Assembly: GCF_016222945.1 (NCBI RefSeq)
Contig: NZ_JACRPY010000003.1
Strand: one strand, 5' to 3'
Length of the DNA stretch: 64,000 nucleotides
Source of the DNA: Methanobacterium sp.
GTDB lineage: Archaea; Methanobacteriota; Methanobacteria; Methanobacteriales; Methanobacteriaceae
The translations under genes were made by a program, and so were the position numbers. The notes under the pieces are model-generated. The model was not told where the DNA came from. It ran no database searches and saw only the letters and a program-made list of their open reading frames with translations. This document shows, piece by piece, positions 14,611-54,820 of this stretch (positions within the stretch are counted from its first letter, which is position 1; each line of letters opens with the position of its first letter).

Positions 14611-15405
<795 letters not shown>

Positions 15406-24379: not shown

Positions 24380-26836
24380 TTATTTTTTAATATTCCAGAA
24401 TATTTCTCCACAGCTACAGCTTAAAGTAGGATCTGATTTTCCTCTATTGACAGATATCATAGAATTACAAGAATTACACATAAATAATCCAAAAAGATTC
24501 TTATATGCTTCAACCACATCTTCAAAATCTTTTTTACTATATTCTGCCCAACGATTATAGTGAACATTTTCATTAATAACCCATTGCTCAATTTGAGCAT
24601 TATTAATTATTTCTTTAGAATTTTTTTCTAAATCTTTAAGATTTTCAAACTTTTCTTTATTTCCAATTTTCTCCGAATTGACTTTTGCTCGCTTAAGATA
24701 TTCCTTATATGTTGATATCGCAGAAGGGGCGAGATCACCTAATTCCCACTGGTGAGTTCCTTTATATGGTATTTTTGCGCTTAAAAAGTCACAAACATTT
24801 TCAAAATACCATTCAGAATTACGTCGAAGCTTATAAGCTGCAGCAGGAATATCGTTTCTATCTAAATCATTCCCAATCTGATCCCATAAATCTTCATCTA
24901 ATTCATAAATTGGCCCTGTATCTATATTCCAATTGAAAAAATGAAGCATATTTCTTTTTGACACTATACCTTGTGTATTTAATTGTTTAGCCCAAGAAGT
25001 ATCATGTGTAGTTATAATAAACTGTTCAGATTTGAAAAACTTGTTAATAAGGTCACAAATTGATTTTCGATGCTCTCTATCAATTGACATTACAACATCA
25101 TCTAAAGCTATGGTTTTAAGACCATTTGCCGAAAGATATTTATTTAGTGCAAAAAATAAGCAGAGCCCCATACTGTCTTGATGACCTTCACTGTGTAGTG
25201 CATTTGGTGGGAACATTCCCTTTCCATAAAAATCAACATCCAATAACAATTCAGCATCATTATGCGATAATTTAGATTTAAATGATTCTTCATCCTCTGA
25301 ATGGAGTTCTTTGTAAAATGTTACAAAGTTATCCTCCAAATCATTATATATTTCCCCAAGAATAATGTCTCTAGACTCATTAAAATATTCTAAAGCTTTT
25401 TGAGCTCTTTTACTAAATAATTGTGCGTTTTCTAATTTTTTAAGTTCTTCAATGTACTTTTTGACTTTTTCTTCCATTTTAGTGAGAGTATCCCACGCTT
25501 TTTGTTGTTCAGATAATTCATCGCCTTTCAATTTTAGAATCTTTTCTAACGGATTTATAATCTGTTCTTCCAAAAACAATTTATTAAATGCTTTTTCAAA
25601 ATCTTCTTTTGGCCATTTACCCTCTTCAAAGTATTTTAAAGGTTCTAACATTATTGTGGACCATTTATTGATGATTATGAAAAAATTTTCTATTTCTTTT
25701 TCATCTATTTCATCAATCTGGAACTGTTCACGTGCCTTTAACAACTTTTTAACATCATCTTTTAATAAATCAGTTTTTTTCTTTATATCTAAAGACAATT
25801 TGCTTATTTTGTCTTTGTTTTCTTTAGATAATTCCATTTCTTTGCTTCTATCTTCTAAATACGATTTAAAATCACCTTCTGTCCATTCTTTACCACATAA
25901 TGGACAGATATTTGTTTTATCAATAATACTGATCCCTGCTTCAAATAATTTTTTATACGCAGAGTAATATCTCAGTTTAGATTCTGTTTTTATGTCTTCA
26001 AAAAGTTTTTTTAACTCTAATTCTTTTAATAAAACATTCGATTTGTCTTCTAATATATTTCTCACACTTTTAATATAATTTTCAACTTGTTCATTTGTCA
26101 AAGCATCTTCTGTTGCTCCTGGAAGATATGGCTCTAAACTAGACTTAATTTCCTCAGGTTGAAGCGATATTATAGGAGTGCCTTTAAATAATGCCCTCAT
26201 ATGATTAATTTTTTCAATTATACTTTCTTCAGAGAACACCTCAACAGAAATAAGCACACATAAATCGTTTTTTGCGATCTCAAAATTACTGGTAGAATTT
26301 TTTAACTCTTTATCTGCTTCAGAATTAACTTTAACAAAATCACGCCTTAAATTACCAATATCATTTAAATCTAATAGGGCAAGTATCTGTTTTTCTCTTT
26401 TACCTGCCTCAGCATTGATAAATTTTAAAATTTCTCTTCTTGAAAGAATATGTTGACCCAGTTTTGCAGTTTCTAAATGTTCTTCTACAATTTTCTTATA
26501 AGAAGTTGGAGAAACCTTTAACGAAGAAGGTTTTGCAAAATTACGCTCTAATAAAACTTCAGAATCATTAAGTAAAATTTTTGCCTTTATAACTACTTTT
26601 TCCGGAGTTTTTATAGAATCAATATGGCCTCCATAACTTGTTATAGGTAAATATTTTGTCCCCTCTCCCATAAACCTAGTCATCTTACCTTTAAGTAAAA
26701 AATCTAGTGAGTCTATTACTGCACTTTTACCTGTTCCATTAGGTCCAAAAATTACTGTGTTGCTACCATTAAGTTCAATATTGGCCTTTTTTATTCCCCT
26801 TATGTTATTAATCTCTAGATTCAATATCTTCATCAT
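24380..26836 (-). CDS. Rad50/SMC-like ABC ATPase with coiled-coil CxxC zinc hook and about 200-aa C-terminal domain (RloC/PrrC-like architecture)
   Basis: 818 aa. Walker A GPNGTGKS (26723..26746). Long Lys/Glu-rich coiled coil with CPLCG at aa 311-315 (25895..25906 for CPLC). Signature-like HSEGHQ, Walker B IALDDV, H-loop ITTHD. C-terminal LRRNSEWYFENV resembles the RRilEnYF motif of AAA_13 anticodon nucleases. Terminal CNSC..CSCG zinc ribbon. Confidence 0.7.
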   Translation of the reverse strand: MMKILNLEINNIRGIKKANIELNGSNTVIFGPNGTGKSAVIDSLDFLLKGKMTRFMGEGTKYLPITSYGGHIDSIKTPEKVVIKAKILLNDSEVLLERNFAKPSSLKVSPTSYKKIVEEHLETAKLGQHILSRREILKFINAEAGKREKQILALLDLNDIGNLRRDFVKVNSEADKELKNSTSNFEIAKNDLCVLISVEVFSEESIIEKINHMRALFKGTPIISLQPEEIKSSLEPYLPGATEDALTNEQVENYIKSVRNILEDKSNVLLKELELKKLFEDIKTESKLRYYSAYKKLFEAGISIIDKTNICPLCGKEWTEGDFKSYLEDRSKEMELSKENKDKISKLSLDIKKKTDLLKDDVKKLLKAREQFQIDEIDEKEIENFFIIINKWSTIMLEPLKYFEEGKWPKEDFEKAFNKLFLEEQIINPLEKILKLKGDELSEQQKAWDTLTKMEEKVKKYIEELKKLENAQLFSKRAQKALEYFNESRDIILGEIYNDLEDNFVTFYKELHSEDEESFKSKLSHNDAELLLDVDFYGKGMFPPNALHSEGHQDSMGLCLFFALNKYLSANGLKTIALDDVVMSIDREHRKSICDLINKFFKSEQFIITTHDTSWAKQLNTQGIVSKRNMLHFFNWNIDTGPIYELDEDLWDQIGNDLDRNDIPAAAYKLRRNSEWYFENVCDFLSAKIPYKGTHQWELGDLAPSAISTYKEYLKRAKVNSEKIGNKEKFENLKDLEKNSKEIINNAQIEQWVINENVHYNRWAEYSKKDFEDVVEAYKNLFGLFMCNSCNSMISVNRGKSDPTLSCSCGEIFWNIKK

Positions 26837-26990
26837 GCTGTTTCCTCAATAATTCTTCAATTTCGGTTCTTTTTGGCTTTTTTTGGGTTACAACAGCAAT
26901 TAAATCACTAGAAATCCCTTTAAACGAAGCATCATTAATTATTTTATCTGCAAATTTATCAAAAATCATTTCCCCCACAGATTTCTTCAT
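26808..26990 (-). CDS. Small (60 aa) protein, translationally overlapping the ABC ATPase gene
   Basis: SD GAGGGA upstream. The 3' end overlaps the ATPase start by 29 nt. No recognised domain. Confidence 0.4.
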   Translation of the reverse strand: MKKSVGEMIFDKFADKIINDASFKGISSDLIAVVTQKKPKRTEIEELLRKQHDEDIESRD

Positions 26991-27362
26991 CTAATCCCTC
27001 TTTTTCACTTAATAGTAATATAATGATAATTCTATTATAATTTCAATATAATAATGTTTCTATTTACATATATTAAGAAAAATTTAGCTTCAAATAAGCC
27101 ATATAAATAGTTTTAAAATAAAAATATCATAGATTATTAGAATAAATATGCCTTAATTAATCTATTTATTTGTTTTAATCTTTTTTATTTACATTATTCT
27201 GTATTTTAGATATTCTTTTAATGTAATTCAGAATATGATAGCTTAATAGTACAATCTAAAATTGGTGATTATTTTATTTGATACGTTTATGGGTATGAAT
27301 AATCATGGCAATTTTATATGGATTAATAACAATAAATTAATAGTAAATTTTCAGGTGATTTT

Positions 27363-27896
27363 ATGAGCTTTAATTTAGAAAACTTAGATGAAGAAATAAG
27401 AGGGTTAATGTTAGAAGAATTAGACTTAGATATGAAAAATAAGAGATTATACTTAAGTGAAAGACTTAATAATTATGGAAAGTCTGAATATCCTGAAATA
27501 CTTAAAAACGGAATGCTAAAAGGAAACTGTGAAACCTTAGCAGCTGCATTAATACTTGAAAATTATTGGAATGAAAAAGAGCCAAGAAGATCAAAAAAAT
27601 ACGGTTTAAAATATGTAAAGGTTCCCAAAAATGCCCATGAAACACTTGCTGAGGGTGAATTTAATAGATTTTATATACGGGCACTTTGCAGAAAAGCAAT
27701 AATAAATAAAAATGAAATAGAAATTTATAGGGCTAAACAAGTTAGGAACCCACGTAAGGAATCTCAAATAATTATTGGAAAATCATTAGATCCTAAAAAA
27801 CTTTTAGAAGATTTAAGAGTAAAAATTGGAGTAGACACTGTTTTAGGAATGCCTCCAGGACCAAATTCTGGTTTGAGTATACGAATAAAAAAGTAA
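27363..27896 (+). CDS. Hypothetical protein (first gene of divergent two-gene module)
   Basis: 177 aa, AGGTGA SD. Followed 41 nt later by the HNH gene. Confidence 0.5.
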   Translation: MSFNLENLDEEIRGLMLEELDLDMKNKRLYLSERLNNYGKSEYPEILKNGMLKGNCETLAAALILENYWNEKEPRRSKKYGLKYVKVPKNAHETLAEGEFNRFYIRALCRKAIINKNEIEIYRAKQVRNPRKESQIIIGKSLDPKKLLEDLRVKIGVDTVLGMPPGPNSGLSIRIKK

Positions 27897-27937
27897 ATTT
27901 TTCAATAAAATACTTTTAATTCATAAGGAGAGATTCA

Positions 27938-29173
27938 ATGAAGGAATGCTGGTCATGCGGAAATAAAATTGACTCCCATAACACATCAAAAGAACATATA
28001 ATTCCAAACGCTCTTTTTGGCAAGTTAAGATCAAATTATATACTTTGTAAAACATGCAATAGTGAATTTTCTAAAATTGATGAATCTTTAGTAAATGATC
28101 TAGATTCTATATCTATCTTTCTAAATGCCAAAAGAGATAGAGGAGCTTCCAAGCCATTGGGTGCAATGTCTAAAGCTGGGGACCCCTACTTAATAAAACC
28201 CGGAGGCAAAGTAGAAATAAAAACTCAGGTTGATAGAAATGGGAATAATCTAAGTATAAAAGTTTCAAATAAAAAAAAGTTAAAAGAGATAAAAGAGGGA
28301 TTAGGGAAAAAATATACGATTCAGAGTGCTACTAATAAAGAAATAGAAGAATATTTGGGCCCATTAACACTCGAAAACAAGCAGATTTTATCAGATGAAA
28401 CTTTTAGGGCAGCTACAAAAATAGCAAGTAATTTTTATACATATAATGGTTTTTCTAAAGAAAATATTGAATCTATAATTGATTACGTAAAAAACAGCTC
28501 TAATCCAAAAGATATAGCGTGGATTTATTATGGTAAAGATATTTATATCTCAAAAGATAGCTGTGAAGTTTTACATTCAATAATATTAAAAGGAAGTAAA
28601 AAAGAAAGGATTTTATATTGTTATATTGAACTTTATGGTGCCCTTAATTTTTTGGTGTTATTATCTAATGGCTATAAAGGAGAAAATTTTGAAAAAACGT
28701 ATTTTTTTGACATTGAAATGAATAAAGAAGTTGATAAGAACTACGAAATATCTTTAAAAAGGAAAAAAATTGAAAAAATATTAAAAAATCAGAAATTATC
28801 CTCTGTTGAAATTAGTGAAAACATGGGGAAAATAGGAAATAAGCTATTATCAAAAAGAGCGCATGATTATCTCATAGAATTAATATCAGAAACTATGGAA
28901 AGTTACCCGGACCCTGATTTGAAAGATACTTGGGACAAAATCAAGCAAAAACTTGAAAAATATCCTCATTGGGATATTTATGGTTTATGCCCTTATCATG
29001 TAAAAACATGGGATCAAAATGGTCCAGAATGTTCATGTGGCTCTCGAAACTATGTATTTAATTTAATAGGTATGCATATTAAAGGAAACGTAATAGCTAT
29101 CCTTTTACAAACTATTTGTAAAAACTGTGAAAAAATGCTAATTTTTGAATTTAAGACATCTTTATCCATTTAA
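27938..29173 (+). CDS. HNH-endonuclease-domain protein (HNH_5-like N-terminus, C-terminal Cys clusters)
   Basis: N-terminus CWSCGNKIDSHNTSKEHIIPNALFGKLRSNYILCKTCNSEF fits the CxxC..EHiiP..CxxCN HNH pattern. C-terminal CPYH..CSCG..CKNC. SD AAGGAGAG. Confidence 0.6.
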   Translation: MKECWSCGNKIDSHNTSKEHIIPNALFGKLRSNYILCKTCNSEFSKIDESLVNDLDSISIFLNAKRDRGASKPLGAMSKAGDPYLIKPGGKVEIKTQVDRNGNNLSIKVSNKKKLKEIKEGLGKKYTIQSATNKEIEEYLGPLTLENKQILSDETFRAATKIASNFYTYNGFSKENIESIIDYVKNSSNPKDIAWIYYGKDIYISKDSCEVLHSIILKGSKKERILYCYIELYGALNFLVLLSNGYKGENFEKTYFFDIEMNKEVDKNYEISLKRKKIEKILKNQKLSSVEISENMGKIGNKLLSKRAHDYLIELISETMESYPDPDLKDTWDKIKQKLEKYPHWDIYGLCPYHVKTWDQNGPECSCGSRNYVFNLIGMHIKGNVIAILLQTICKNCEKMLIFEFKTSLSI

Positions 29174-33344: not shown

Positions 33345-34814
33345 ATGGGTTTTAACATGACCAAAACTGAAAAACTGGCAATAATAGATGTAAAAGCTGA
33401 ATTAAAGCTCTTACCCATGGTTCTTCATGCAGTTCGTGAAGTTAGCCAAAAATATGGGTTAGAAGAAAAATATGCCCGGGACCTTGAACTTGCCACAGAG
33501 GAAGCTTGCCACAATGTTATTGAACATGCATACCCTGATAATGAAAAGGGTTATTATCAAGTTGAAATTCATAAAGAACCCACCAAATTCGTAATCACCG
33601 TTAAAGATCAGGGAATACCTTTCAACCTCAACCTTTTAACCGATGAACAACCGACAGATCTTGGAATAAAGATAATGCGAGCTTATACTGACGAGATAAA
33701 CAGTAAATACTTGGGAAAGGAAGGTAAAGAAGTGGAACTGGTAAAATATCTTCCATTTGAACCCATAGAAGAGCCTGAGCATCCTATAGAAGAGGAGTTA
33801 CTTGCCCCTAAATCTGAAGAAATTTCACTTAGAATTATGCGACCTGATGAGACCGTGGCTTTAGCCAGATGCATCTACAAGGTTTATGGCTATACTTATC
33901 CCCATGAAGACATTTACTATCCTCAAAAGTTCAGTTCTCTCATTGAATCAGGATTGGTTACTTCTTGCGTTACAGTAAACTCAAAAGATGATGTTATTGG
34001 ACATTTAGGAGTTTTCTTGGAGAACCCAGATGATTTGGTAGGAGAATCAGCATTAGCTGCAGTGGATTCACGATATCGAGGTAGGGGAATCTTTCCAAAG
34101 ATGAAAAATTTGATGATGGAACATGTCCAAAAGAAAGGTCTTCTTGGACTTTATAGCCGTGCTGTAACTGTACATGTGGCATCTCAAAAGTCTAACGTAA
34201 AAATGGGGGCTAAAGAGACTGGTTTCGTGTTAGCACATTCACCACCCACTGCTATATTTAAAAAAATGGAAGCAAGTAGTGGAAGTAACCGAAGAACAGT
34301 AGCCCTTTTCTATGTGCCTGTTGCACCTGACCCTGGACATAATGTTTTTTTACCACTAAAACATGGAGATATCCTCAAAAAGATTTATAATCATGGAGAA
34401 TTAAAACGAACTTTCAATCAATCTTCTAATGAAGGATTATCTTTCCATTCACAAATACACTCCCATCTACTTCCAGAGATGAGTAGTGCTTTCCTTAGAG
34501 TAAATAAATTTGGAATAGATTTTCTTGATGAACTCAAGCTTCAAGTAAATGACCTGTGCTATCGTCATGTGGAATTAATTGTACTTGATCTTCCATTAAG
34601 CGATCCTGCCACTGCCCTCCTTTGTCCAGAAATAGAAGATCTGGGATTTTTCTTTAGTGGACTCATGCCAGAATACCTTGATGGAGATGCTCTGCGCCTG
34701 CAATACCTTAACAATGTGATCTTTAATCCAGAAGATGTACAGGTCTACTCAGAATTTGGAAAGGATATATTTTCATATGTAGTAGAAGAATGGAAATCAA
34801 AAAATTATTATTAA
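33345..34814 (+). CDS. Fusion protein: RsbW/SpoIIAB-like HATPase_c kinase domain + GNAT acetyltransferase domain + C-terminal extension
   Basis: The N-terminal roughly 140 aa carry the N-box-like ELATEEACHNVIEHAY and ..DQGIPF... The central region has a GNAT motif-A-like ..AAVDSRYRGRGIFPKMKNLMMEHVQKKG... Confidence 0.65.
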   Translation: MGFNMTKTEKLAIIDVKAELKLLPMVLHAVREVSQKYGLEEKYARDLELATEEACHNVIEHAYPDNEKGYYQVEIHKEPTKFVITVKDQGIPFNLNLLTDEQPTDLGIKIMRAYTDEINSKYLGKEGKEVELVKYLPFEPIEEPEHPIEEELLAPKSEEISLRIMRPDETVALARCIYKVYGYTYPHEDIYYPQKFSSLIESGLVTSCVTVNSKDDVIGHLGVFLENPDDLVGESALAAVDSRYRGRGIFPKMKNLMMEHVQKKGLLGLYSRAVTVHVASQKSNVKMGAKETGFVLAHSPPTAIFKKMEASSGSNRRTVALFYVPVAPDPGHNVFLPLKHGDILKKIYNHGELKRTFNQSSNEGLSFHSQIHSHLLPEMSSAFLRVNKFGIDFLDELKLQVNDLCYRHVELIVLDLPLSDPATALLCPEIEDLGFFFSGLMPEYLDGDALRLQYLNNVIFNPEDVQVYSEFGKDIFSYVVEEWKSKNYY

Positions 34815-34858
34815 TTTTAGGGATAAATTTAATTTAAAGGGGAAGGTGTGGTGAAAAA

Positions 34859-35194
34859 ATGGAAATAGGGAAAAAAAGTGTAGATAATGTGGAGATAATA
34901 CCTCTAAATGGTAGGCTTGATGCCTATTCATCCAGCCAGGTTGAAAAAACCATAAATTCGCTAATCGAGGATGGTAAAATCAAAATTGTGGTTAATTTTA
35001 AAGAGATAGAATACATAAGCAGCTCCGGTTTAAGGGTTATGCTGGCATCGCTTAAAAAATTAAAGAAAATTAACGGAGATATAAAATTAGCCTGTCTTAA
35101 ACCCTATGTACTGGAAGTTTTTGAAATAGCAGGTTTTACACACCTTTTTGATATTTATGAAAGTGAAGAAGAAGCAGTGAACAGTCTTCAATGA
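34859..35194 (+). CDS. STAS-domain anti-sigma-factor-antagonist-like protein (RsbV/SpoIIAA family)
   Basis: 111 aa. ..FKEIEYISSSGLRVML.. contains the conserved phosphorylatable Ser context (Ser55, 35021..35023). Confidence 0.85.
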   Translation: MEIGKKSVDNVEIIPLNGRLDAYSSSQVEKTINSLIEDGKIKIVVNFKEIEYISSSGLRVMLASLKKLKKINGDIKLACLKPYVLEVFEIAGFTHLFDIYESEEEAVNSLQ

Positions 35195-35209
35195 ATAAGG
35201 TGAAGACAT

Positions 35210-36931
35210 ATGAAAATCACCACTGCACAGCTTTTTTTACTTTATTTGGAAGGTGAAGGTGTAGAATACATCTTCGGAGTTCCAGGTACATCATTAGTCC
35301 CTCTATACGATGCTTTAAACAAGCAGGATGCAATTAAACCTATTTTAAGTAAACATGAAGAAGGCGCGGCTTTTATGGCTGATGGTTATGCCAGAGTAAG
35401 TGGTAAACTCGGCGTCTGTTATGCTACATCCGGTCCAGGTTCAACGAATCTTGTTACTGGTGTTGCCAATGCTTATATGGATAATATCCCTCTTCTGGTT
35501 ATAACTGGCCAGGTCCCTACCAATATTTATGGCAAAGGAACATTTCAAGACTCCACTAAAGAGGGTATTGATTCTGTAGCCATGTTCGATACAATGACCA
35601 AATTCAGTGAAATGATAATTTCCAGATATAAAATGCCCGAAACGTTAAGGGAAGCTATAAGAATAGCTTTTAGCGGTAAAAAAGGCCCTGTACATATAAG
35701 TTATCCTAAAGATATTATGCAAGAGGAGATTGAAGATACTCTGCTACCGCCCCGTAGTTATAGGGTAGAATCCAACTATTTCGATCGGAGATTAGTTGTT
35801 GAAACTTCCCAAAAGCTTATAAATGCAAAAAAACCTGCAATGTTGATTGGTTCTGGAGTTATAGCTTCAAATGCAACCATGGAGGTTTTTGAACTTGCAG
35901 AAATGCTCAATATTCCTGTGGCCACAACCCCCAAAGCAAAAGGGGCGTTCCCAGAAGATCATCCTCTTTCCCTGGGTGTTTTTGGATTCAGCGGATCTCC
36001 AGCAGCGACTGAATATTTAAAAAGCGATATAGACGTTCTTTTAGTAGTAGGCTCCAGTTTAAATCAGATGACCACCTTATCATGGGATCCTAAACTTCAA
36101 CCCAGTGAAACCATGATTCATATTAACATTGACCCTGCAGACATTGGAAAAAACTATGTTGCAGATATTGGATTGGTAGGAGACTGTCAAACCGTTTTAA
36201 ATGAAATTTCATTTCGTATTTTACGAGAATTACAAAAACATGACTTTCAAAAGGAAAGACCAACTGAAAACATTGTTAAATTCAAAGAAAGTGTGGGAAA
36301 GTATATTGATGAGGATAAAATGTTTTCTGAATCTGTGCCTATAAAACCCCAGGCTTTAACCAGGGAAATTCAAGAAAATCTGCCTGATGATGCCATTGTT
36401 TTCATTGATGTAGGTAACATCTTATGCTGGTCAATTCATTACATGCAATTTAAAAGTCCGAATATAATACCTCCATTTGGATTTCTTCCCATGGGATATG
36501 CAACTTCTGCTGCAATTGGAGGAAAGCTTGCAGCTCCCGAAAAACCTGTGATTGCCATTGTAGGAGATGGATGCTTCCAGATGAATGGAATGGAGATAGC
36601 AACTGCTGTAAATCATGATATACCTGTTGTTTGGATTGTTCAAAACAACTCCAAGTTGGGACTGGTGCATGAGCTTCAAAGATTTGATTTGGGAGATAAA
36701 ACTGTTTCTACAACATTTAAAGAAGTTAATCTGGCAAAAGTAGCTGAAGGATTAGGTGCTAAAGGATATAGAATAAAAAAACCCGGAGAAATATCCGATA
36801 TTCTTCCAAAAGCAATAGAAAGCCAGATACCTACAGTAATAGATGTAATCATCGACCCAGATGAAGTTCCACCCTTAGAAAGTTGGGTTAAAGGTGTAAG
36901 AGAGCTTGGCTCAAGATTAGACTATTTATAA
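35210..36931 (+). CDS. Thiamine-diphosphate-dependent enzyme, acetolactate synthase large-subunit-like
   Basis: 573 aa. N-terminal ..GVEYIFGVPGTS.., ..GPGSTNLVTGVANAY.., and C-terminal TPP-binding ..GDGCFQMNGMEIATA..N... Confidence 0.85.
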   Translation: MKITTAQLFLLYLEGEGVEYIFGVPGTSLVPLYDALNKQDAIKPILSKHEEGAAFMADGYARVSGKLGVCYATSGPGSTNLVTGVANAYMDNIPLLVITGQVPTNIYGKGTFQDSTKEGIDSVAMFDTMTKFSEMIISRYKMPETLREAIRIAFSGKKGPVHISYPKDIMQEEIEDTLLPPRSYRVESNYFDRRLVVETSQKLINAKKPAMLIGSGVIASNATMEVFELAEMLNIPVATTPKAKGAFPEDHPLSLGVFGFSGSPAATEYLKSDIDVLLVVGSSLNQMTTLSWDPKLQPSETMIHINIDPADIGKNYVADIGLVGDCQTVLNEISFRILRELQKHDFQKERPTENIVKFKESVGKYIDEDKMFSESVPIKPQALTREIQENLPDDAIVFIDVGNILCWSIHYMQFKSPNIIPPFGFLPMGYATSAAIGGKLAAPEKPVIAIVGDGCFQMNGMEIATAVNHDIPVVWIVQNNSKLGLVHELQRFDLGDKTVSTTFKEVNLAKVAEGLGAKGYRIKKPGEISDILPKAIESQIPTVIDVIIDPDEVPPLESWVKGVRELGSRLDYL

Positions 36932-36972
36932 TTTTTTCAAAAATTTAAAATACAATCAAAAATCCCCTAAAA

Positions 36973-38334
36973 GTGAAAAAAATGGATGTCACTATAGATT
37001 TCCTGCTAAGTCTCTTGGAAAAGATGTGTGTATTCATAGTTATAGCATATTTGATAACCCGCACGAAATTATTTACCAGAATATTAGACCGTGAATTCTC
37101 AATAAAAACCATGGTTATTTTTATATCCATCTTTGGGATTATCACCATATTTTCCATTGCCTCAGGAATAGATATATTTGATACCGAAGCTGACATGGCA
37201 GAGCTAGCTCCTATGGTGGCAGGTCTGGTGGGAGGCCCCATTATTGGCCTAGCAGTAGGTGTCATTGGAGGTATTTCCCGTTATTTGGCAGGTGGTCCTG
37301 CCAGTTTAATTCTTTCCATTTCAATCATGCTTTCGGGGTTGTTTGCTGGAATAATCTACATGTTAAATCAGCGAAAATTCATAGGGATGTTGGGTTCAGT
37401 TGTATATTCGCTTTTAATGGGCTCTTTAACTATCTTGCTTGTGGTTTATTACTATCCTGACGAGTTCAACTACATCATATATCTAGGTTTACCATTGGTT
37501 TTCTCTAATACGTTAGGAATACTTATATTTGGATTCATAATCTCCAATTTGATAAAAGAAATAGAAACATCCGGTGAACGCGATAAATACTTCAAAGAAT
37601 TGGAACAAAAGAAAAAAGAACTACAGATCGCCCGAAATATTCAAAAAAGTTTCCTTCCAAAGGAGATACCTCAACCCAAGAATTTTGACTTGGATGCAAT
37701 AAATATACCTGCTTTGGAGGTAGGGGGTGACTTTTATGATTTCATTCCCATAGGTAAAGAAGAAATGGGGCTAGTAATCGCAGATGTTTCAGGAAAAGGT
37801 GTACCTGCTGCGCTTTTCATGGCTTTTTCTCGAACTGTAATCAGGGCAAAGACAACTGAAACTCAAAAAGCCATTGATATTATAAAGAATGCCAATCGCC
37901 TCATCACTTCGGAAGCTGAGTCAGGTATGTTTGTAACGCTCTTTTATGGCATTCTAAATTGCATAGAAAGAACATTTACATATGTTAATGCAGGGCATAA
38001 CCCTCCCTTAATATTTAAATCAAAAACTGATCGCATTAAAATCCTTAAAACAGAAGGAATTGCAATAGGTGCACTTGAAGAAGTGATATTTGAAGAGAAG
38101 AAAATAAAACTTGAAACTGGTGATATGATAATATTTTATACTGACGGCGTAACAGAAGCCTTAAATAATGAAGAGGAACAATTTGGTGATAAAAGGTTAT
38201 TTAAGCTTTTAAAGGAGAATAAAGATTTATCCCCAAGTAAAATGGTAAGTAAAATAATAGATGAAGTAGAGGAATTCTCTGGAGGAAGAACACAGTTTGA
38301 TGACATTACCCTTATGGTTTTAAAAGCCACATAA
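36973..38334 (+). CDS. Membrane sensor PP2C phosphatase (5TM LytS-type receptor domain + SpoIIE/RsbU domain)
   Basis: N-terminal TM bundle with Gly-rich ..GLVGGPIIGLAVGVIGGISRYLAGG... The C-terminal part has ARNIQKSFLP..GGDFYDF..VIADVSGKGVPAALFMA..NAGHNPP..FYTDGVTEA..DDITLMVLK. The true start may be ATG 36982. Confidence 0.85.
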   Translation: MKKMDVTIDFLLSLLEKMCVFIVIAYLITRTKLFTRILDREFSIKTMVIFISIFGIITIFSIASGIDIFDTEADMAELAPMVAGLVGGPIIGLAVGVIGGISRYLAGGPASLILSISIMLSGLFAGIIYMLNQRKFIGMLGSVVYSLLMGSLTILLVVYYYPDEFNYIIYLGLPLVFSNTLGILIFGFIISNLIKEIETSGERDKYFKELEQKKKELQIARNIQKSFLPKEIPQPKNFDLDAINIPALEVGGDFYDFIPIGKEEMGLVIADVSGKGVPAALFMAFSRTVIRAKTTETQKAIDIIKNANRLITSEAESGMFVTLFYGILNCIERTFTYVNAGHNPPLIFKSKTDRIKILKTEGIAIGALEEVIFEEKKIKLETGDMIIFYTDGVTEALNNEEEQFGDKRLFKLLKENKDLSPSKMVSKIIDEVEEFSGGRTQFDDITLMVLKAT

Positions 38335-38386
38335 CTATTTAGAAAATCTTTTTGATTATAAATATGTAAAAATGGAGTGATTTTTG

Positions 38387-38818
38387 ATGAAATTAAATTT
38401 CCAACTGGAGACAGATGCAAAACTCGAAAATTTAGCCATGATTGCAGATTTCATCTTTCATTCCATGAATGATTTTGATTTAGATGAAAAAACAGTGCAT
38501 CAAATTCAAATAGCAGTTGATGAGGCCTGTACTAATATAATAAATCATGCATATCCTCAAAAAAAAGGAAAAATCCATATTATCTGCTTTAAAAAAGAAG
38601 AACAGATTCTAATAGTTATAGAAGACTGGGGGAAGTCATGGGACCCTCAATCAGTTAAACCTCCAGATCTTAAATCCGGTTTTAAAGAACGTCAAATCGG
38701 AGGTCTGGGAATACATTTCATCAAAACCTTTATGGATCATGTCAAATATCATGAGGAAAATGGTAAAAACGTTTTAACCATGATAAAATCATTTAATAGT
38801 AAAATTAAGCTTAAATAA
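38387..38818 (+). CDS. RsbW/SpoIIAB-like anti-sigma-type serine protein kinase (stand-alone HATPase_c)
   Basis: ..IAVDEACTNIINHAY..IEDWGKSWDP..GGLGIHFIKTFMD... ATG 38387 lies 6 nt after GGAGTGA (the track TTG at 38384 is adjacent). Confidence 0.8.
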   Translation: MKLNFQLETDAKLENLAMIADFIFHSMNDFDLDEKTVHQIQIAVDEACTNIINHAYPQKKGKIHIICFKKEEQILIVIEDWGKSWDPQSVKPPDLKSGFKERQIGGLGIHFIKTFMDHVKYHEENGKNVLTMIKSFNSKIKLK

Positions 38819-38873
38819 AGGAGTTAAAAAATAAATGATATTGATAATGGGAATTGAAATAGAGAGGGATTGA

Positions 38874-40175
38874 ATGTATCATAACCAATACCAAAAAAAA
38901 TTGACTAATCCTGATGATGCTGTAAAATCAATCAGAGAAGGTGATATGCTGGTTCACGGATTAACCATGGCTGAACCACCAGCATTATTAAGGGCAGTTG
39001 CTTCACGACTTAAATCAGGTGAAATTAAACATATGAAGGTCTTTTCTATACTTCCTTTGGCCCATGCTTGCTCCACAGTTCTAGCTTCAGATTTAGTTGA
39101 TTGCGTTGAGGCCTACAGTGGGTTTGTTGATGGAGGTACAAGAGGATTAGTAAGCACAGGACTTAATTATTATGTGCCAAATCATCTACACCAAGTTCCA
39201 AGACTTTTAGAAGAGTTCATTGGAGTAGATGTATGTATAACTACAGTATCCCCTATGGACGATTCTGGTTATTTCTCATTTGGAACAGCCAATGATTTCA
39301 CTTCAAAAGCAGCAAGGGCAGCAAGGGTTTTGATAGTTGAAGTAAATCGGAACATGCCTCGAGTTTTTGGTGAATCTCTTCTCCATATTTCAGAAGTAGA
39401 TGCCGTTGTAGAAAATCATGAGCCAATTCCAGACTTTCCAACCGGTAAAATGCTACCTGAAGCTGAAACCATTGGAAAAATCATATCCCAAATGGTTCCT
39501 GACGGTGCTACATTACAAATGGGAATAGGTGTTCTGCCAGATGCCGTTGCCAAATATCTGGATAACCACTCTGATCTTGGCATTCATACAGAGGTTTTTG
39601 GACCTGGAATGGTGGATCTTATAAAGAAAGGAGTTATCACTGGCGAGAGAAAAACGTTACATCCTCGAAAACATGTCTTCACCGTGGCTCAGGGGAATCA
39701 GGAGATGTTGGAGTTTATGGATAATAATCCAGCCATGGTCAGCTATCCTTGTTCTTATGTCAATAGCCCTGCAATAATAGCAAAAAATGACCGAATGATA
39801 TCTATAAATTCTCTTCTCCAGGTTGACTTGTTAGGGCAATGCAATGCAGAATATCTATCCGGCCACCAGTACAGCGGCACAGGAGGTCAACTAGACTTTG
39901 TAAGGGGTGCTTTTGACTCGAAAGATGGGAAGTCTATATTAGCTTTTTATTCCACCGCCAAAGGTGGTACTATTTCTAGGGTGGTAGACCGTTTAGATCC
40001 AGGAGCTATGGTAACAACGCCCAGAATGGACACGCATTATTTGGTAACTGAATTCGGCGTGGCTAATCTCAAGGGTAAGTCCACTAGAGACAGGGCACTG
40101 GCAATCATCGATATTGCACACCCCAAATTCCGGGATGACCTTATAAAGCGTGCCGAGGATATGTATTTGCTGTAA
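38874..40175 (+). CDS. Acetyl-CoA hydrolase/transferase family protein (4-hydroxybutyrate/butyryl-CoA:acetate CoA-transferase-like)
   Basis: 433 aa. ..INSLLQVDLLGQCNAE..YSGTGGQLDFVRGA.. is characteristic of the family. Confidence 0.85.
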   Translation: MYHNQYQKKLTNPDDAVKSIREGDMLVHGLTMAEPPALLRAVASRLKSGEIKHMKVFSILPLAHACSTVLASDLVDCVEAYSGFVDGGTRGLVSTGLNYYVPNHLHQVPRLLEEFIGVDVCITTVSPMDDSGYFSFGTANDFTSKAARAARVLIVEVNRNMPRVFGESLLHISEVDAVVENHEPIPDFPTGKMLPEAETIGKIISQMVPDGATLQMGIGVLPDAVAKYLDNHSDLGIHTEVFGPGMVDLIKKGVITGERKTLHPRKHVFTVAQGNQEMLEFMDNNPAMVSYPCSYVNSPAIIAKNDRMISINSLLQVDLLGQCNAEYLSGHQYSGTGGQLDFVRGAFDSKDGKSILAFYSTAKGGTISRVVDRLDPGAMVTTPRMDTHYLVTEFGVANLKGKSTRDRALAIIDIAHPKFRDDLIKRAEDMYLL

Positions 40176-43793: not shown

Positions 43794-46700
43794 GTGAAAA
43801 ACATAAAAAAACAAACAACTACAAAAATTCTCATTTCTATTATCTTTATCATCGCTTCATTAACATTAATAGGTGCTGTTTCGGCAGCAGATACAAATTT
43901 AACTGATAATCCATCTGATTCTGTTTCTTCAGATGACCTTGCCTTTATAGAAATTTCAGGTCAAGTCAACCAATGTTCTAATGGAGAACCTTTCCCCGGA
44001 GCAACAGTAAAAGTCCATGATAATGGGACAGAGATTGCCAGTACCACCACAAATCCCGATGGGACTTACAATTTTAATTTCCAAAGCAAAAAGCGAGTTT
44101 TCACAGTAACAGCCAATGCCAACGGACACAAACCATCAACTCAGGAAGTTACGGTTGTTGAAAACTCCGATGGTACTTACACAGGAACATCAGATTTCAA
44201 ACTGGGAGCTAACGACGCCTACGTCTGGAATGGATGGGCTTCAGATCCTACTCATGATATTACTTTCTCTGATACTACCACAATTAATGGAAATGCACCT
44301 AATGCTCGAACTACTATACAAGCAGGTATAGATCACGCTGAACTTACTGGAAGCACAGTATACATAGCACCCAGCACTTACTATGAACACAACTTGGTTA
44401 TCGACAACCCAGTTACAATACACGGTGAAAACATGGGCTCAACCATAATTGACGGCCAAAATGGACGTATATTCTATATAACTGCTTCAAATGTCAATAT
44501 ACAACAACTAACACTTACCCATGGAAATGCTCTTGCCTATGGTGGAGCTATCCTCACGGTTAGTGGAACCGTAAACATATCTAATACCATTTTTGATCGT
44601 AACTATGTAACTAACTATGGCGGAGCTATCTACAACAATGGTGGAACATTAACCATATTAAACAGTGCATTTTATAGTAATGGCGCAGGTGACTTTGGTG
44701 GAGCAATCTGCAACAATGGTGGAACAGTAACCATACCAGGCAGCACATTCGACAGTAACACGGCACCAAATGGTGGTGGCGGAGCCATCTACAACACAGG
44801 AACATTAGACATAAACACCAGCACATTCCAAAATAACGAAGCATTTAGTGGTAATGGCGGAGCCATCTACAATGATGGAGGAACAGTAACCATAGGTACA
44901 GGCAGCACATTCACAGGCAACAGAGTAAATAATCCGGGTTATAGCGGTGGAGCTATCTACAACACTAATGACGGGAGGGTGTTCATATCAGGCACCACAT
45001 TCAACAGTAATTATGCACAACATGGTAATGGTGGAGCCATCTACAACAATGATGGAACCGTAAACATATTCGAAAGCAGCACTTTCGACCATAACGAAGT
45101 ATCTGATGGTTATGGTGGAGCCATCTACAATTCTAATAGTGGAGCAGTAAACATACTTGACTATGGTATAATCAATAGGTTCATCAATAACAGCGCAGGG
45201 ATTGGTGGAGCGATCGCCAATTTTGGAATGATAGATATATCCCACTCTGCATTCGGCGATATATCTGAGGGTAACACCGCAAATTATGGTGGAGCTATCT
45301 ACAATAGTGGAACCGTAAACATGTCAGGCAGCACATTCACTGATAACACCGTAAACATTGATGGTGGAGCTATCTACAACAATGTTGGTGGAACCGTAAA
45401 CATAGGTGCAGGCAGCACATTCACACACAACTCTGCAAATTATGATGGGGGAGCCATCTACAATGTTAATGGTGGAACCGTAGAGATATACAGCGGCACA
45501 TTCGACAATAACCACACAAATGGTGGTGATGGTGGAGCTATCTACAATACTGGAACTGCAAACATATACGACAGCACATTCACAGACAACCATGCATATC
45601 ATGATTTTGGTGATTGTTATGGTGGAGCTATCTTCAACACTAGAACGTTAAGAATAGACAGCAGCACATTCACAGGCAACAGGGCTTCATTCGATGGTGG
45701 TGGTGGAGCTATCTACAATGCCGGGACAGCAGACATATTTGGCGGCACCCTATTCGACGGTAACACCGCATCAAGTGGTTATGGTGGAGCAATCTACAAC
45801 ACTAGTATAATGAACATATCATGCGCAACATTCACAGGCAACAGGGCAGTAGATGAGTTTATGGGGTGGCAGCTTTGTTATGGTGGTGCCATTTATAATA
45901 ATGGTGGAAACATCCTAATATGGAATTCCCCTAATTCATTTAACGGTAACAGCGCAAGTGGTGGTGGTGGAGCCATCTACAACAATGGTGGAACAGTAAC
46001 TATATTCGGCGGCTGCGCATTCAACGGTAACGCCGCAACTGATCCTATATCCGGGTATGGTGGAGCCATCTACAACAATCGTGGAACAGTAAACATAAGA
46101 GGCACTAGCGCATTCAACGGTAACACCGCAACACGTGATGGTGGAGCAATCTACAACACTGTTGGTGGAAATATAGACTTTTCATGCGACGAACTCACAT
46201 TTATTAATAATAGAGCAACAACTACTTATGGGGGAGCCATCTACAATAATGGCGGAACTGTAACCATATCTAGCGATGCACTCGGCACTAAATTTGAGGG
46301 TAACACTGCAGGAACTAATGGTGGAGCTATCTACAACACTGTTGGTGGAATAGTAACCATTTCAGACACAACATTTACCAGTAACTCCGCATTGAATGGT
46401 GGGGCTATCAACAACAATGCAGGTGGAACAGTAACCCTATCTAACACCTCATTTATCAATAATGCTGCAACGACAGGTTATGCTGGGGCCATCTACAATA
46501 GTGGAACACTAAACATATCCGGCAGCAGCACATTCACAGGCAACACTTCATTCGGTGGTGATGGTGGAGCCATCTACAATACCGGAACCGTCGGAATATC
46601 TGGCAGTACATTCACAAACAACCATACAAATATTCCTTTAACAAATACAGGTGGCGGAGCTATCTACAACACCAGTAGTGGAACCGTAAACATATCAAGC

Positions 46701-48890: not shown

Positions 48891-48930
48891 ATAAAATTCT
48901 TCCTCAATTTTTTTATTTTTTTTATTAATC

Positions 48931-49096
48931 TAGTTAAGTATTAATGATAGCAAAAACTAACTCTTTTTGAATAACACACTTACAAACTAATTAAACTAAA
49001 TTCCATTTAAAACTGAAATATTTTATTAACTAAACATAAAGGAGCCTACAAAATTTACAATTTTGTGGCCCAAAAAATTCAAAGAATTTTTAGGAG
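48931..49096 (+). promoter_or_regulatory. Conserved adhesin-gene leader, copy 2 (palindrome at 49048..49066)
   Basis: Matches copy 1 closely but lacks the roughly 60-nt internal segment present in copies 1 and 3. Confidence 0.5.
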
Positions 49097-52690: not shown

Positions 52691-52792
52691 GTAAATTCTT
52701 CCCCATTTTTTACTTTTTTTAAATTTTCTATAAATTTATTGAATATTCATCACTTTTTTATGTTTTCTGATTGTTTTTAGGAAATATTATAT

Positions 52793-53094
52793 AATAGCAA
52801 AAACTAACATTTTTTGGATGAATACACTTACAAACTAATTAATCCAAACATCAATGGAACCATTTCACCTCAATTACCTTTTTTGAAGTGCACCATTAAA
52901 CTGAATTCCATTTAAAACTCAACAATTTAATTAACTAAGCATGAAGGAGCCTACAAAATTTACAATTTTGTGGCTATCAAACACTTCGTGTTTGATGCCT
53001 GCAAAAACCTTTGGTTTTTGCGGTTGCAAAGCAAGCTTTTGCAAACATCAAAAATGTAATTTTCAAATGCTCTAAAAAATAAATTTTTTAGGAG
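52793..53094 (+). promoter_or_regulatory. Conserved adhesin-gene leader, copy 3 (palindrome at 52953..52971), interrupted by a hairpin-array insertion
   Basis: Aligns with copies 1 and 2 on both sides of a roughly 99-nt insertion at 52975..53073. Confidence 0.5.
52975..53073. repeat. Hairpin-array element (three 7-8 bp stem-loops) inserted into leader copy 3; MITE/REP-like
   Basis: ATCAAACA-cttcg-TGTTTGAT, GCAAAAAC-ctttg-GTTTTTGC and TTGCAAA-gcaagct-TTTGCAA. Absent from the otherwise colinear leaders 1 and 2. Confidence 0.45.
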
Positions 53095-53102
53095 GTGAAA
53101 AA

Positions 53103-54806: not shown

Positions 54807-54820
54807 ATTATGTGATCAAT

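Follow-up and report, generated by a model that had tools for sequence, protein, structure and literature searches.

In Firmicutes, the RsbU-RsbV-RsbW and SpoIIE-SpoIIAA-SpoIIAB partner switches combine a STAS antagonist carrying a phosphoserine, a GHKL-type RsbW/SpoIIAB kinase, and a SpoIIE/PPM phosphatase that has a sensor at its N terminus, all encoded by clustered genes on one strand. Non-sigma partner switches include HsbR-HsbA of P. aeruginosa and SypE-SypA of V. fischeri. HenR/All4160 of Anabaena is a further example (PMC13555669). Rsb-like gene sets in Methanobacteriales are already in print (PMC2812497), as is the fusion of a 5TMR sensor to a PPM phosphatase, recorded as "prevalent in archaea" (PMC11109136). 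LytS/BtsS-type 5TMR-LYT domains are pyruvate receptors (PMC10653868). Among GNAT acyltransferases, regulated proteins form type III (cNMP-GNAT of mycobacteria, ACT-GNAT of actinobacteria, and NADP-GNAT of Myxococcus), and tandem GNATs such as Eis form type V (PMC8556138).

Here, we describe a six-gene cluster from a Methanobacterium sp. MAG, located in a 64,000-nucleotide stretch of DNA (the window) that carries archaeal EF-2, EF-1alpha, S12, and NusA genes at 1 to 6.3 kb. The cluster shares the features of the Firmicutes switches listed above, but it contains no sigma factor, and its anti-sigma-like domain is part of the same polypeptide as a tandem GNAT. It also differs in encoding two RsbW-like proteins, one with a shortened ATP lid, and a phosphatase that is itself a 5TMR receptor in the membrane and not one activated by RsbT or the stressosome. 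As in the non-sigma switches, the STAS phosphorylation state would act on an enzyme or other non-sigma target and not on transcription initiation, and RsbW-like modules occur within multidomain proteins. The fused element differs: All4160 joins a STAS domain to the enzyme, whereas in this cluster the enzyme carries the kinase-like (anti-sigma-like) domain and the STAS protein is free. The literature searched contained no characterization of a K1G-type RsbW-like/GNAT fusion and no report of acyl-CoA-dependent acylation as a partner-switch output, and the architecture is missing from the GNAT classification in PMC8556138. The original remark that no characterized system with this wiring was known is consistent with that search; its novelty does not extend to the Rsb-like sets or the 5TMR-PPM fusion, which had been published.

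Components of the cluster

Table 1. Genes of the six-gene cluster, with positions in the window.
Gene product	Length (aa)	Position	Strand	Basis
K1G, RsbW-like + GNAT fusion	489	33345..34814	+	Pfam, family alignment, AF2 model
Single-domain STAS protein	111	34859..35194	+	Pfam, TIGR00377, motif
Acetolactate-synthase-superfamily ThDP-dependent (TPP) enzyme	573	35210..36931	+	TPP_enzyme_N/M/C
Membrane receptor-phosphatase (PP2C), 5TMR-LYT + SpoIIE/PPM	453	36973..38334	+	Pfam, TM windows, motifs
K2, stand-alone RsbW/SpoIIAB-type serine kinase	144	38384..38818	+	HATPase_c_2, conserved boxes
CoAT, family I CoA-transferase	433	38874..40175	+	Pfam, PDB 4n8h, TIGR03948

The originally described arrangement of six same-strand genes with gaps of 15 to 55 nt was borne out, all six reading frames lying as in Table 1 with intergenic gaps of 44, 15, 41, 49, and 55 nt. 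An independent gene caller placed the ATG starts of the phosphatase and K2 at 36982 and 38387, which barely alters the gaps. A T6 run and a TATA-like TTTAAAATA in the gap between the TPP and phosphatase genes could break the cluster into two transcripts. The predicted domains were likewise recovered by a Pfam search (HATPase_c_2, STAS, TPP_enzyme_N/M/C, 5TM-5TMR_LYT, SpoIIE, and AcetylCoA_hydro/AcetylCoA_hyd_C).

The STAS protein scored 73 bits against Pfam STAS and 82.9 bits against TIGR00377, for which the cutoff is 53.45. Its predicted phosphorylation site, Ser55 in the motif YISSSGLRV, had been proposed from the ISSSGL context; the codon is at 35021-35023, and 24 STAS proteins linked to K1G, archaeal and bacterial, all have the serine within the motif YISS[SA]GLRV. 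We take this position to align with Ser58 of SpoIIAA and Ser56 of RsbV. K2 (HATPase_c_2, 103.7 bits) has an N box (DEACTN), G1 (DWG), G2 (GGLGI), and a full-length lid that are conserved among 19 linked homologs. It is a canonical small RsbW-like kinase, and we propose it as the Ser55 kinase.

The phosphatase combines a 5TM-5TMR_LYT domain (85 bits; an S-component-type fold with approximately six TM segments) with a SpoIIE domain (178 bits) in which the catalytic motifs GGDFYDF, DVSGKG, NAGH, YTDGVTE, and DDITL are present. It has the same membrane sensor fold as LytS/BtsS (PMC10653868), but the output is a PPM phosphatase and not a histidine kinase. Alignment with E. coli BtsS indicated that pyruvate-binding residues R99 and S113 are retained, while R72 is replaced by Ala and C110 by Leu. 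Across this copy and its nearest relative (locus L007), Arg72 is Ala and Cys110 is Leu/Ile, whereas most K1G-linked 5TMR-PP2Cs retain all four residues. Replacement of two of the four pocket residues counts against the mechanism proposed below. Bacterial clusters carry extra PP2Cs with cNMP, dCache+HAMP, or ECF-S-like+HAMP sensors, the kind of multi-input pattern that typifies partner switches. Taken together, the STAS protein, K2, and the receptor-fused phosphatase look like a complete and catalytically intact set, as had been predicted.

The TPP enzyme matched TPP_enzyme_N/M/C (143, 142, and 137 bits) and scored below the cutoff of every NCBIfam equivalog. Its best PDB relative is BbmA (8x3x, 498 bits; E. 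coli ALS I, 284 bits), and no ALS small-subunit gene is adjacent to it in the cluster. CoAT (AcetylCoA_hydro, 70 bits; AcetylCoA_hyd_C, 211 bits) matched PDB 4n8h with 480 bits and TIGR03948 with 328 bits, under the cutoff of 675; it is a family I CoA-transferase of the 4-hydroxybutyrate/butyryl-CoA:acetate type.

The K1G fusion and its neighborhoods

K1G comprises a HATPase_c_2 domain (residues ~9 to 135; 78.9 bits), a disordered linker (139 to 150), a GNAT domain (~161 to 300), and a C-terminal domain (~317 to 487). The original GNAT call was right, though not by the direct Pfam score for Acetyltransf_1, which was slightly below the cutoff (19.2 versus 20.7 bits). The weak call is rescued by the many homologs that pass the PF00583 cutoff, by an AF2 model (pLDDT 83.7) whose Foldseek matches were GNATs only (E ~1e-8), and by the acetyl-CoA motif R243-Y-R-G-R-G248. 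With this RYRGRG motif, the first GNAT is active-looking. The C-terminal domain had no match in a Pfam search. Modeled alone (pLDDT 88), its sole structural matches were GNAT folds (TM ~0.4), so it is predicted to be a degenerate, GNAT-like domain, and K1G thereby resembles the type V tandem GNATs (Eis), with the CoA motif in GNAT 1 and a degenerate GNAT 2.

In the full-length family alignment, E53, D88, G90, R245, and G246 are invariant. Of the kinase residues in the N-domain, the Glu and Asn of the N box and the Asp of G1 are retained, and the ATP lid is 13 residues shorter than that of B. subtilis RsbW (6m36). A profile search with the C-terminal domain yielded 2,023 representatives, mostly ~490 aa, and complete core-only tandem-GNAT genes of 337 to 378 aa were found. 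The tandem-GNAT core was also seen behind FHA domains, one protein being 2xFHA + RsbW-like + GNAT. Because the core occurs alone and behind FHA domains, the RsbW-like N-domain is an added regulatory module, and K1G is a tandem-GNAT catalytic core that gained it. A regulatory module N-terminal to the GNAT is also the type III layout, but in K1G it would be a protein-binding domain that reads a phospho-switch and not a small-ligand domain.

Neighborhoods within 6 kb of K1G were surveyed at 78 loci of K1G homologs in reference genomes. STAS, PP2C, and K2 genes were found at 22, 20, and 19 of these loci, respectively, in at least five lineages, a clustering with K1G that exceeds chance. Switch genes were present in 6/10 Methanobacterium, 9/12 Dehalococcoidia, 3/4 Ignavibacteriota, 1/2 Bacteroidota, and 1/18 Cloacimonadota neighborhoods, and one Dehalococcoidia locus holds all six families. 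When all K1G neighbors were clustered without bias, the three most recurrent families were STAS, PP2C, and CoAT. No partner-switching gene was found within 6 kb at 46 of the 78 loci, including all 14 from Desulfobacterota, which indicates that K1G can function without a linked switch or that its partners are encoded elsewhere.

The inclusion of both acetyl/acyl enzymes in the predicted system held for only one of them. CoAT is robustly linked to K1G (15/78 loci, three gene orders, four lineages), and some of these loci lack STAS, PP2C, and K2; pairs are divergent in Methanobacterium (L008-L010) and tandem in Rubrobacteraceae, the latter without any partner-switching genes. The K1G family thus resembles type III and type V GNATs in its genomic ties to acyl-CoA-forming enzymes. 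The TPP enzyme occurs at only two loci (L001 and L022), with a deletion remnant at a third (L028), and is an accessory metabolic passenger and not a core part.

Proposed mechanism and competing explanations

We hold with moderate confidence that the module is a sigma-independent partner switch with an acyltransferase as output. Its most likely target is K1G, which joins an anti-sigma-like domain to a putative acyl-CoA-dependent acyltransferase, in line with the original view of the kinase-GNAT fusion as the likely non-sigma output. The proposed input is the membrane receptor-phosphatase, which would sense a small carboxylate, through a BtsS-type pocket altered in the lineage of the window, and remove the phosphate from STAS-Ser55-P. 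Unphosphorylated STAS would bind the anti-sigma-like N-domain and turn the fused GNAT on or off, the "sequestered partner" being fused in cis. Rephosphorylation of STAS by K2, and possibly by the K1G N-domain too, would reset the switch. The linked CoAT would make or interconvert the acyl-CoA that the GNAT uses, and we propose CoAT as either acyl-CoA supplier or target of K1G.

If CoAT were the target, K1G would be a Pat-like protein lysine acyltransferase, and the switch would gate acylation of CoAT or, elsewhere, of AMP-forming acyl-CoA ligases, on the pattern of AcuA/AcsA or of type III GNATs regulated through cAMP, ACT, or NADP. Only the acceptor differs from the preferred account, and we regard this version as unlikely. 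In its favor, the recurrent metabolic neighbors of K1G make acyl-CoA: CoAT at 15 loci and an AMP-binding ligase at 7 loci of Cloacimonadota, besides a PaaK-like ligase whose gene overlaps a core-only tandem-GNAT gene. The divergent CoAT-K1G pairs (L008-L010) are also arranged much like acsA/acuABC. An N-terminal regulatory domain on a GNAT also fits type III logic (PMC8556138). However, no sirtuin or HDAC deacetylase was linked among the K1G neighborhoods surveyed, and the top-scoring folds belong to GNATs of the small-molecule or N-alpha kind (such as SpeG, Rim, and tabtoxin resistance), a point that does not discriminate. Regulatory acylation has, to our knowledge, no precedent among family I CoA-transferases.

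Other neighbors suit small-molecule chemistry better. An M20 amidohydrolase (TIGR01891, 311 bits versus a cutoff of 154) directly follows the K1G homolog at L011 and L012, an NSAR/OSBS-subfamily enolase (TIGR01928, 234 versus 201 bits) does so at L050 and L055, and DHA2 MFS efflux genes occur in other neighborhoods. The AMP-forming and PaaK-like ligases can be counted among these small-molecule hints as well. Given these racemase, N-acyl-amino-acid amidohydrolase, and efflux neighbors, small-molecule N-acylation is equally indicated, and the predicted gating of protein acetylation is kept as one option; we lean slightly toward a small amine or amino acid as the acceptor. Each clue is lineage restricted (M20 at two loci, the NSAR-like enolase at two, and the AMP-binding ligase in one Cloacimonadota subclade). 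In Geobacillus kaustophilus, a GNAT succinyltransferase, NSAR/OSBS, and M20 desuccinylase form one pathway, as cited in bioRxiv 10.1101/2022.03.03.481873, and the K1G neighborhoods parallel it in their neighbor genes. The enolase and M20 never co-occurred at one K1G locus among those sampled, and the window contains neither.

Retention of the ATP-binding N-box and G1 residues means that K1G might be just a second STAS kinase. In a further alternative, K1G would be a STAS kinase under metabolite control, its GNAT serving as an acyl-CoA sensor, and the output would be unphosphorylated STAS acting on CoAT, on the TPP enzyme, or on some transporter or transcription factor. At L044 and L048, STAS-K1G pairs have no K2 or PP2C nearby, and the kinase at these loci may be K1G; direct action of a STAS protein on a nonkinase target is known from All4160 (PMC13555669). 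We nevertheless consider this improbable: most K1G loci have no STAS gene nearby, 19 have the dedicated canonical kinase K2, and the tandem-GNAT core stands alone and is enzyme-like, with an invariant RxxGxG unlike a degenerate sensor. Mere co-location, in which STAS, PP2C, and K2 serve a target encoded elsewhere while K1G, TPP, and CoAT are metabolic genes of no relation to the switch that share its transferred island, would suit the mosaic history of the cluster (identities to Dehalococcoidia copies range from 39% for K1G to 75% for TPP) and the gain and loss of the TPP gene between loci. Elsewhere in Methanobacteriales, the neighbors of Rsb-like sets are of a very different kind, NRPS among them (PMC2812497). 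Yet adjacency of K1G to the switch persists across several gene orders and distant phyla, and K1G itself contains an RsbW-like domain, a domain whose only known ligands are STAS proteins and sigma factors, which makes this explanation very improbable.

Origin of the module

Clusters of K1G, STAS, PP2C, and K2, variously with CoAT and TPP, also occur in Dehalococcoidia, Ignavibacteriota, Bacteroidota, and Cloacimonadota, and the archaeal K1G sequences form one monophyletic clade. The window TPP enzyme is 75% identical to a Dehalococcoidales copy, and CoAT is 61 to 69% identical to Dehalococcoidia copies. The argument that an archaeon without sigma factors needs a new output does not account for the wiring, as the same clusters are found in bacteria that have sigma factors. 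Methanobacterium looks to have received the whole module from bacteria by horizontal transfer. The presence of the kit in several bacterial phyla suggests that it was acquired and not invented by the archaeon, and its occurrence in sigma-bearing bacteria, together with the single archaeal K1G clade, suggests that it was imported ready-wired.

Components of the six-gene cluster

All six plus-strand open reading frames (ORFs) that the original prediction had placed in the cluster were recovered, separated by gaps of 44, 15, 41, 49, and 55 nt. With a second gene caller, the start moved slightly downstream to an ATG both in the phosphatase (36982) and in K2, the stand-alone RsbW-like kinase (38387). 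The predicted domains, including STAS, HATPase_c_2, and SpoIIE, were each found by Pfam search: HATPase_c_2 and a borderline GNAT in the RsbW-like/GNAT fusion (K1G), STAS in the STAS protein, TPP_enzyme_N/M/C in the acetolactate synthase (ALS)-like TPP enzyme, 5TM-5TMR_LYT and SpoIIE in the phosphatase (PP2C), HATPase_c_2 in K2, and AcetylCoA_hydro and AcetylCoA_hyd_C in the CoA-transferase (CoAT). NCBIfam concurred on the protein kinds, with the TPP enzyme and CoAT scoring below every equivalog cutoff.

Coordinates of features in the window and in numbered K1G-homologue loci (L) of other genomes
Feature	Sequence	Position	Strand	Length (aa)
EF-2, EF-1alpha, S12, and NusA genes (archaeal)	window	1-6.3 kb		
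DUF362 protein	window	11309-13708	-	799
Short-chain dehydrogenase	window	13719-14651	-	
Acetoacetate-decarboxylase-family protein	window	14611-15405	-	
SMC/AAA_23-type ATPase (-) and HNH_5 endonuclease protein (+)	window	24380-29173	-, +	818, 411
K1G, RsbW-like/GNAT fusion	window	33345-34814	+	489
STAS protein	window	34859-35194	+	111
Ser55 of STAS protein	window	35021-35023	+	
TPP enzyme	window	35210-36931	+	
TPP-PP2C gap	window	36932-36972		
PP2C, 5TMR-LYT + SpoIIE phosphatase	window	36973-38334	+	
K2, RsbW-like kinase	window	38384-38818	+	144
CoAT	window	38874-40175	+	
Three surface proteins	window	43794-54806		1,698, 1,197, 431
B12-binding radical SAM protein	window	54713-56245		
Phosphatase orthologue in three ORFs	L005	11992-13360		
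K2 in two ORFs	L007	11042-11480		
ECF-S-like second phosphatase	L016	13228-15078		
TPP remnant	L028	7458-7730		91

The STAS protein scored 73 bits against Pfam STAS and 82.9 bits against TIGR00377 (cutoff, 53.45). Ser55, singled out earlier as the phosphorylation site, proved to be invariant within the motif YISS[SA]GLRV in 24 K1G-adjacent STAS proteins, and it aligns with the serine at which SpoIIAA and RsbV are phosphorylated. K2 matched HATPase_c_2 with 103.7 bits and has a full lid and conserved DEACTN, DWG (DxG), and GGLGI boxes. The phosphatase scored 177.7 bits against SpoIIE, contains all of the PPM motifs (GGDFYDF, DVSGKG, YTDG, and DDIT), and has about six transmembrane segments. Like the Rsb/SpoIIA partner switch, the window cluster contains a single-domain STAS antagonist, a GHKL serine kinase, and a PPM phosphatase. 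Partner switching is the textbook route of sigma-factor control in Firmicutes. The Rsb/SpoIIA switch sequesters a sigma factor, whereas the module in the window, judged from its gene content, is partner-switch-like but probably regulates no sigma factor. There is no sigma-like gene within the window cluster, and the host is an archaeon. A scan for sigma-70 promoters, which is inapplicable to archaea, gave no more matches than shuffled sequence did.

The gap between the TPP enzyme and PP2C genes contains a T6 run directly after the TPP stop codon and TTTAAAATA some 24 nt ahead of the PP2C GTG/ATG start, without a Shine-Dalgarno-like purine run. These elements could be an archaeal terminator and an internal TATA box that produces a leaderless PP2C-K2-CoAT transcript.

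The 5TMR-LYT domain of Escherichia coli BtsS binds pyruvate via Arg72, Arg99, Cys110, and Ser113 (PMC10653868). Alignment of BtsS with the K1G-linked phosphatases placed Ala, Arg, Leu, and Ser at these positions in the window phosphatase, which therefore lacks the BtsS-type pyruvate tetrad. Arg, Arg, Cys, and Ser/Ala were found in four Methanobacterium loci (L001 to L004), eight Dehalococcoidia loci, and one Cloacimonadota locus (L057). The closest relative of the window copy (L007) shares Ala at position 72, and position 110 is Leu/Ile across both. The ancestral signal was plausibly pyruvate or a close carboxylate, and the pocket is altered in the window's lineage. In the complete genome of Methanobacterium ferruginis NBRC 105197 (L005), the 5TMR-SpoIIE orthologue is broken into three ORFs, consecutive or overlapping, that span residues 5 to 143, 139 to 345, and 344 to 453, beside intact genes for K1G, STAS, and K2. 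Frameshifts or a pseudogene in a cultured strain are implied. At L007, where K1G is 82% identical to that of the window, K2 consists of two overlapping ORFs (residues 2 to 39 and 37 to 137), through a frameshift or else an error in the assembly.

An assignment of the TPP enzyme as biosynthetic ALS (IlvB) was rejected on its scores against TIGR00118 (458 bits versus a cutoff of 538) and PRK06276 (470 versus 866). No ilvN-like small-subunit ORF adjoins the TPP gene, and the enzyme is nearer to BbmA (8x3x), its best PDB relative, than to any ALS. By its domains (Pfam, 70 and 211 bits) and its similarity to a 4-hydroxybutyrate CoA-transferase structure (4n8h, 480 bits over residues 6 to 433), CoAT belongs to the 4-hydroxybutyrate/butyryl-CoA:acetate CoA-transferase family. 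With 328 bits against a TIGR03948 equivalog cutoff of 675, this is a family-level call that implies no substrate.

Elsewhere in the window, genes for an acetoacetate-decarboxylase-family protein, a short-chain dehydrogenase, and a DUF362 protein lie in a row, a set that is unusual for a hydrogenotrophic methanogen. The stretch encoding the SMC/AAA_23-type ATPase and the HNH_5 endonuclease protein, which has the lowest GC content of the window (0.27 at 26 to 30 kb), closely precedes the six-gene cluster and may represent a mobile or defence islet. The three large surface proteins are adhesin-like proteins typical of Methanobacteriales, encoded in a region of higher GC content (0.42 to 0.44). 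The largest has many short GGAIYN-type repeats, and the smallest, the sole one scanned, matched a Chlamydia PMP repeat and DUF11. The end of the DUF11 gene is overlapped by about 90 nt, in another frame, by the B12-binding radical SAM gene.

Architecture of K1G and its family

The N-domain of K1G aligned with B. subtilis RsbW (6m36, E value of 1e-12) and retains Glu/Asn in the N box and Asp in G1, but its ATP lid is shorter than that of 6m36 by about 13 residues, and the first G2 glycine has been lost in the archaeal clade. By the N, G1, and G2 boxes, K2 fully fits the RsbW/SpoIIAB kinase type and the K1G N-domain fits it partly. An AlphaFold2 model of K1G (pLDDT of 83.7) has three folded modules. 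The top 50 PDB matches of the middle module in Foldseek were all GNATs (E value of ~1e-8). This module contains the acyl-CoA motif (Q/RxxGxG/A type) as R243-YRGRG-248, in which R245 and G246 are invariant in the family alignment. K1G therefore has both the fold and the acyl-CoA-binding motif of a GNAT, although its Pfam score (19.2) is below the cutoff of 20.7; many homologues carry PF00583. Pfam search gave no match in the C-terminal 170 residues, and a sequence duplicate of the first GNAT was rejected for this domain (hhalign probability of 0.4%). Modelled alone (pLDDT of 88), it matched solely GNAT folds, weakly (TM of ~0.4). Because of the motif, the alignments, the modelled modules, and the fold matches, we read K1G as an RsbW-like domain followed by a probably active GNAT and a degenerate GNAT-like domain.

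The window belongs to a Methanobacterium sp. metagenome-assembled genome, and its K1G is 100% identical to an NCBI Methanobacterium entry. The family is conserved over its full length of ~490 aa, with 58 to 87% identity within Methanobacterium and 33 to 48% identity in many bacteria, among them Chloroflexota/Dehalococcoidia, Cloacimonadota, Ignavibacteriota, Desulfobacterota, Sumerlaeota, Rubrobacteraceae, and Azospirillum. When the family-specific C-domain served as the profile in an exhaustive search, 2,023 representative proteins were recovered (246 with an E value of ≤1e-30), the majority with the 490-aa architecture. Core-only relatives are complete genes of 337 to 378 aa that begin directly at the GNAT. 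They lie on contigs of ~1.8 kb, on one of which the gene is adjoined by those for a PaaK-like ligase and a POR gamma subunit. In a metagenomic protein of 1,046 aa (P0227), two FHA domains at the N terminus precede the RsbW-like domain, which the GNAT core follows. As FHA domains bind phospho-Thr, this is a second tie of the acyltransferase family to Ser/Thr phosphorylation signalling. From the core-only genes and the FHA variant, we conclude that the tandem-GNAT core is the constant, enzyme-like part, to which the RsbW-like domain was added as a module at the N terminus. In outline this recalls the regulated protein lysine acetyltransferases of type III, in which a ligand-binding cNMP, ACT, or NADP domain precedes a GNAT that acetylates acyl-CoA synthetases, but the regulatory domain of K1G is of a different kind. 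The RsbW-like/GNAT type is missing from the published GNAT classification (PMC8556138), and family members are now annotated merely as "ATP-binding protein" or "GNAT family N-acetyltransferase."

Distribution and origin of the cluster

With one genome scanned for each species, 214 K1G loci were confirmed, of which the best 78 were searched with the six window proteins; separately, all neighbouring ORFs were clustered without prior assumptions. The most common neighbour families in these 78 of 214 loci were STAS (22 loci), SpoIIE phosphatase (20 loci), and CoAT (15 loci), and K2-like kinases were found in 19. The switch genes (STAS, PP2C, and K2) lie beside K1G in Methanobacterium (6 of 10 loci), Dehalococcoidia (9/12), Ignavibacteriota (3/4), Bacteroidota (1/2), and Cloacimonadota (1/18); no switch genes were found nearby in 46 of the 78. 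The expectation that the six genes would be conserved together stood in part. STAS, PP2C, K2, and CoAT recur in distant lineages, but among the best 78 of 214 loci the TPP enzyme was found only at L001 and L022, with a remnant at L028. It was therefore rejected as a core part and is considered an accessory passenger. The remnant, an ORF directly after K1G in a member of the Dehalococcoidales, matches only TPP residues 2 to 39 and 545 to 573, an apparent internal deletion, indicating that the TPP gene was formerly in that bacterial cluster and was later lost.

Gene orders vary among lineages. One Dehalococcoidales locus (L022) contains all six families along with a GlcD-like FAD oxidase and a cNMP-PP2C, and bacterial clusters often include extra phosphatases (with dCache plus HAMP, ECF-S-like plus HAMP, or cNMP sensors) and solute-binding proteins. 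In three Dehalococcoidales loci (L016, L023, and L039), the second phosphatase combines a membrane domain like the ECF riboflavin S component with HAMP and SpoIIE, so that both cluster phosphatases use S-component-fold sensors. STAS and K1G are paired without K2 at L044 and L048 and therefore constitute the minimal conserved pair. CoAT is linked to K1G without switch genes in divergent pairs in Methanobacterium (L008 to L010) and in tandem pairs in five Rubrobacteraceae/Actinomycetota loci.

Archaeal K1G sequences formed a single clade amid bacterial branches in a neighbor-joining tree. Identity to Dehalococcoidia copies varied from 39 to 40% for K1G through 43 to 48% for PP2C, 42 to 49% for K2, 53 to 56% for STAS, and 61 to 69% for CoAT to 75% for the TPP enzyme. 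Because of this clade and these varied identities, the archaeal cluster appears to be a mosaic of bacterial origin and not an archaeal reinvention. No sigma factor was found in the bacterial clusters, in which every intervening gene was identified. The original prediction had argued that a module in archaea, which lack sigma factors, needs a new output; this framing fails, as the same sigma-free wiring occurs in bacteria that possess sigma factors, and the cluster is less exotic than it suggested. Rsb-like gene sets in Methanobacteriales were ascribed to bacterial transfer in the Methanobrevibacter ruminantium genome paper (PMC2812497), and the 5TMR-PPM fusion has been called prevalent in archaea (PMC11109136).

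A candidate acyltransferase switch and its alternatives

We propose that the receptor-phosphatase and K2 would determine whether STAS Ser55 is phosphorylated. Unphosphorylated STAS would bind the RsbW-like domain of K1G and alter the activity of the fused GNAT, for which the linked CoAT would supply the acyl donor, and K2, perhaps together with K1G, would rephosphorylate STAS. Comparative genomics lends this phospho-switch hypothesis good support. The full proposal is that a STAS phospho-switch gates an acyl-CoA-dependent acyltransferase via a cis-fused anti-sigma-like domain, takes its input from a membrane receptor for a pyruvate-like carboxylate, is widespread in anaerobic bacteria (~2,000 representative sequences), and was exported to methanogens. 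We advance it tentatively, as slightly less probable than an even chance.

Neighbouring genes provide clues in favour of two kinds of acceptor, each restricted to certain lineages. A protein acceptor, as for Pat, is favoured by the recurrence of acyl-CoA-forming enzymes, namely, CoAT, an AMP-forming ligase in seven Cloacimonadota loci, and the PaaK-like ligase abutting a core-only gene; the AMP-forming ligase was rejected as a general neighbour, being confined to one Cloacimonadota subclade. A small molecule is favoured by an enolase of the NSAR/OSBS subfamily, which exceeds the TIGR01928 cutoff and is encoded directly downstream of K1G in Geobacteraceae; by an M20 N-acyl-amino-acid amidohydrolase, which exceeds the TIGR01891 cutoff and takes this position in two archaeal loci; and by DHA2 efflux pumps in about ten loci. 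The NSAR/OSBS and M20 neighbours recall, in outline, the Geobacillus GNAT-NSAR-M20 pathway. As alternatives, K1G could act as a STAS kinase that senses a metabolite, with the output elsewhere, or the cluster genes could be only loosely co-located; the 46 loci without nearby switch genes count against the favoured switch model. The module could also be a defence system, but none of the six proteins matched a PADLOC model, and an anti-phage or GNAT toxin system was rejected.

Partner switches that target enzymes have begun to be recognised, such as one that acts on a glycosyltransferase in Anabaena (PMC13555669). In the open-access literature, we found no paper on an RsbW/HATPase_c_2-GNAT fusion or on an acyltransferase as the output of a partner switch, in agreement with the original prediction, in which no characterised system with such wiring was known. 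If the model is true, an acyltransferase read-out would join the outputs of partner switching, with an anti-sigma-like domain turned into a cis regulatory module, and K1G would be a further type of regulated GNAT beside those regulated by cAMP, amino acids, and NADP. It would also be an undescribed tie of Ser phosphorylation signalling to acylation chemistry. A large uncharacterised protein family is flagged here for assignment, and the model offers a concrete, testable role for Rsb-like genes in archaea that lack sigma factors. The link of the module to a pyruvate-type receptor and to CoAT suggests that the use of short-chain acyl-CoA may be controlled in this way in methanogens and their syntrophic partners.
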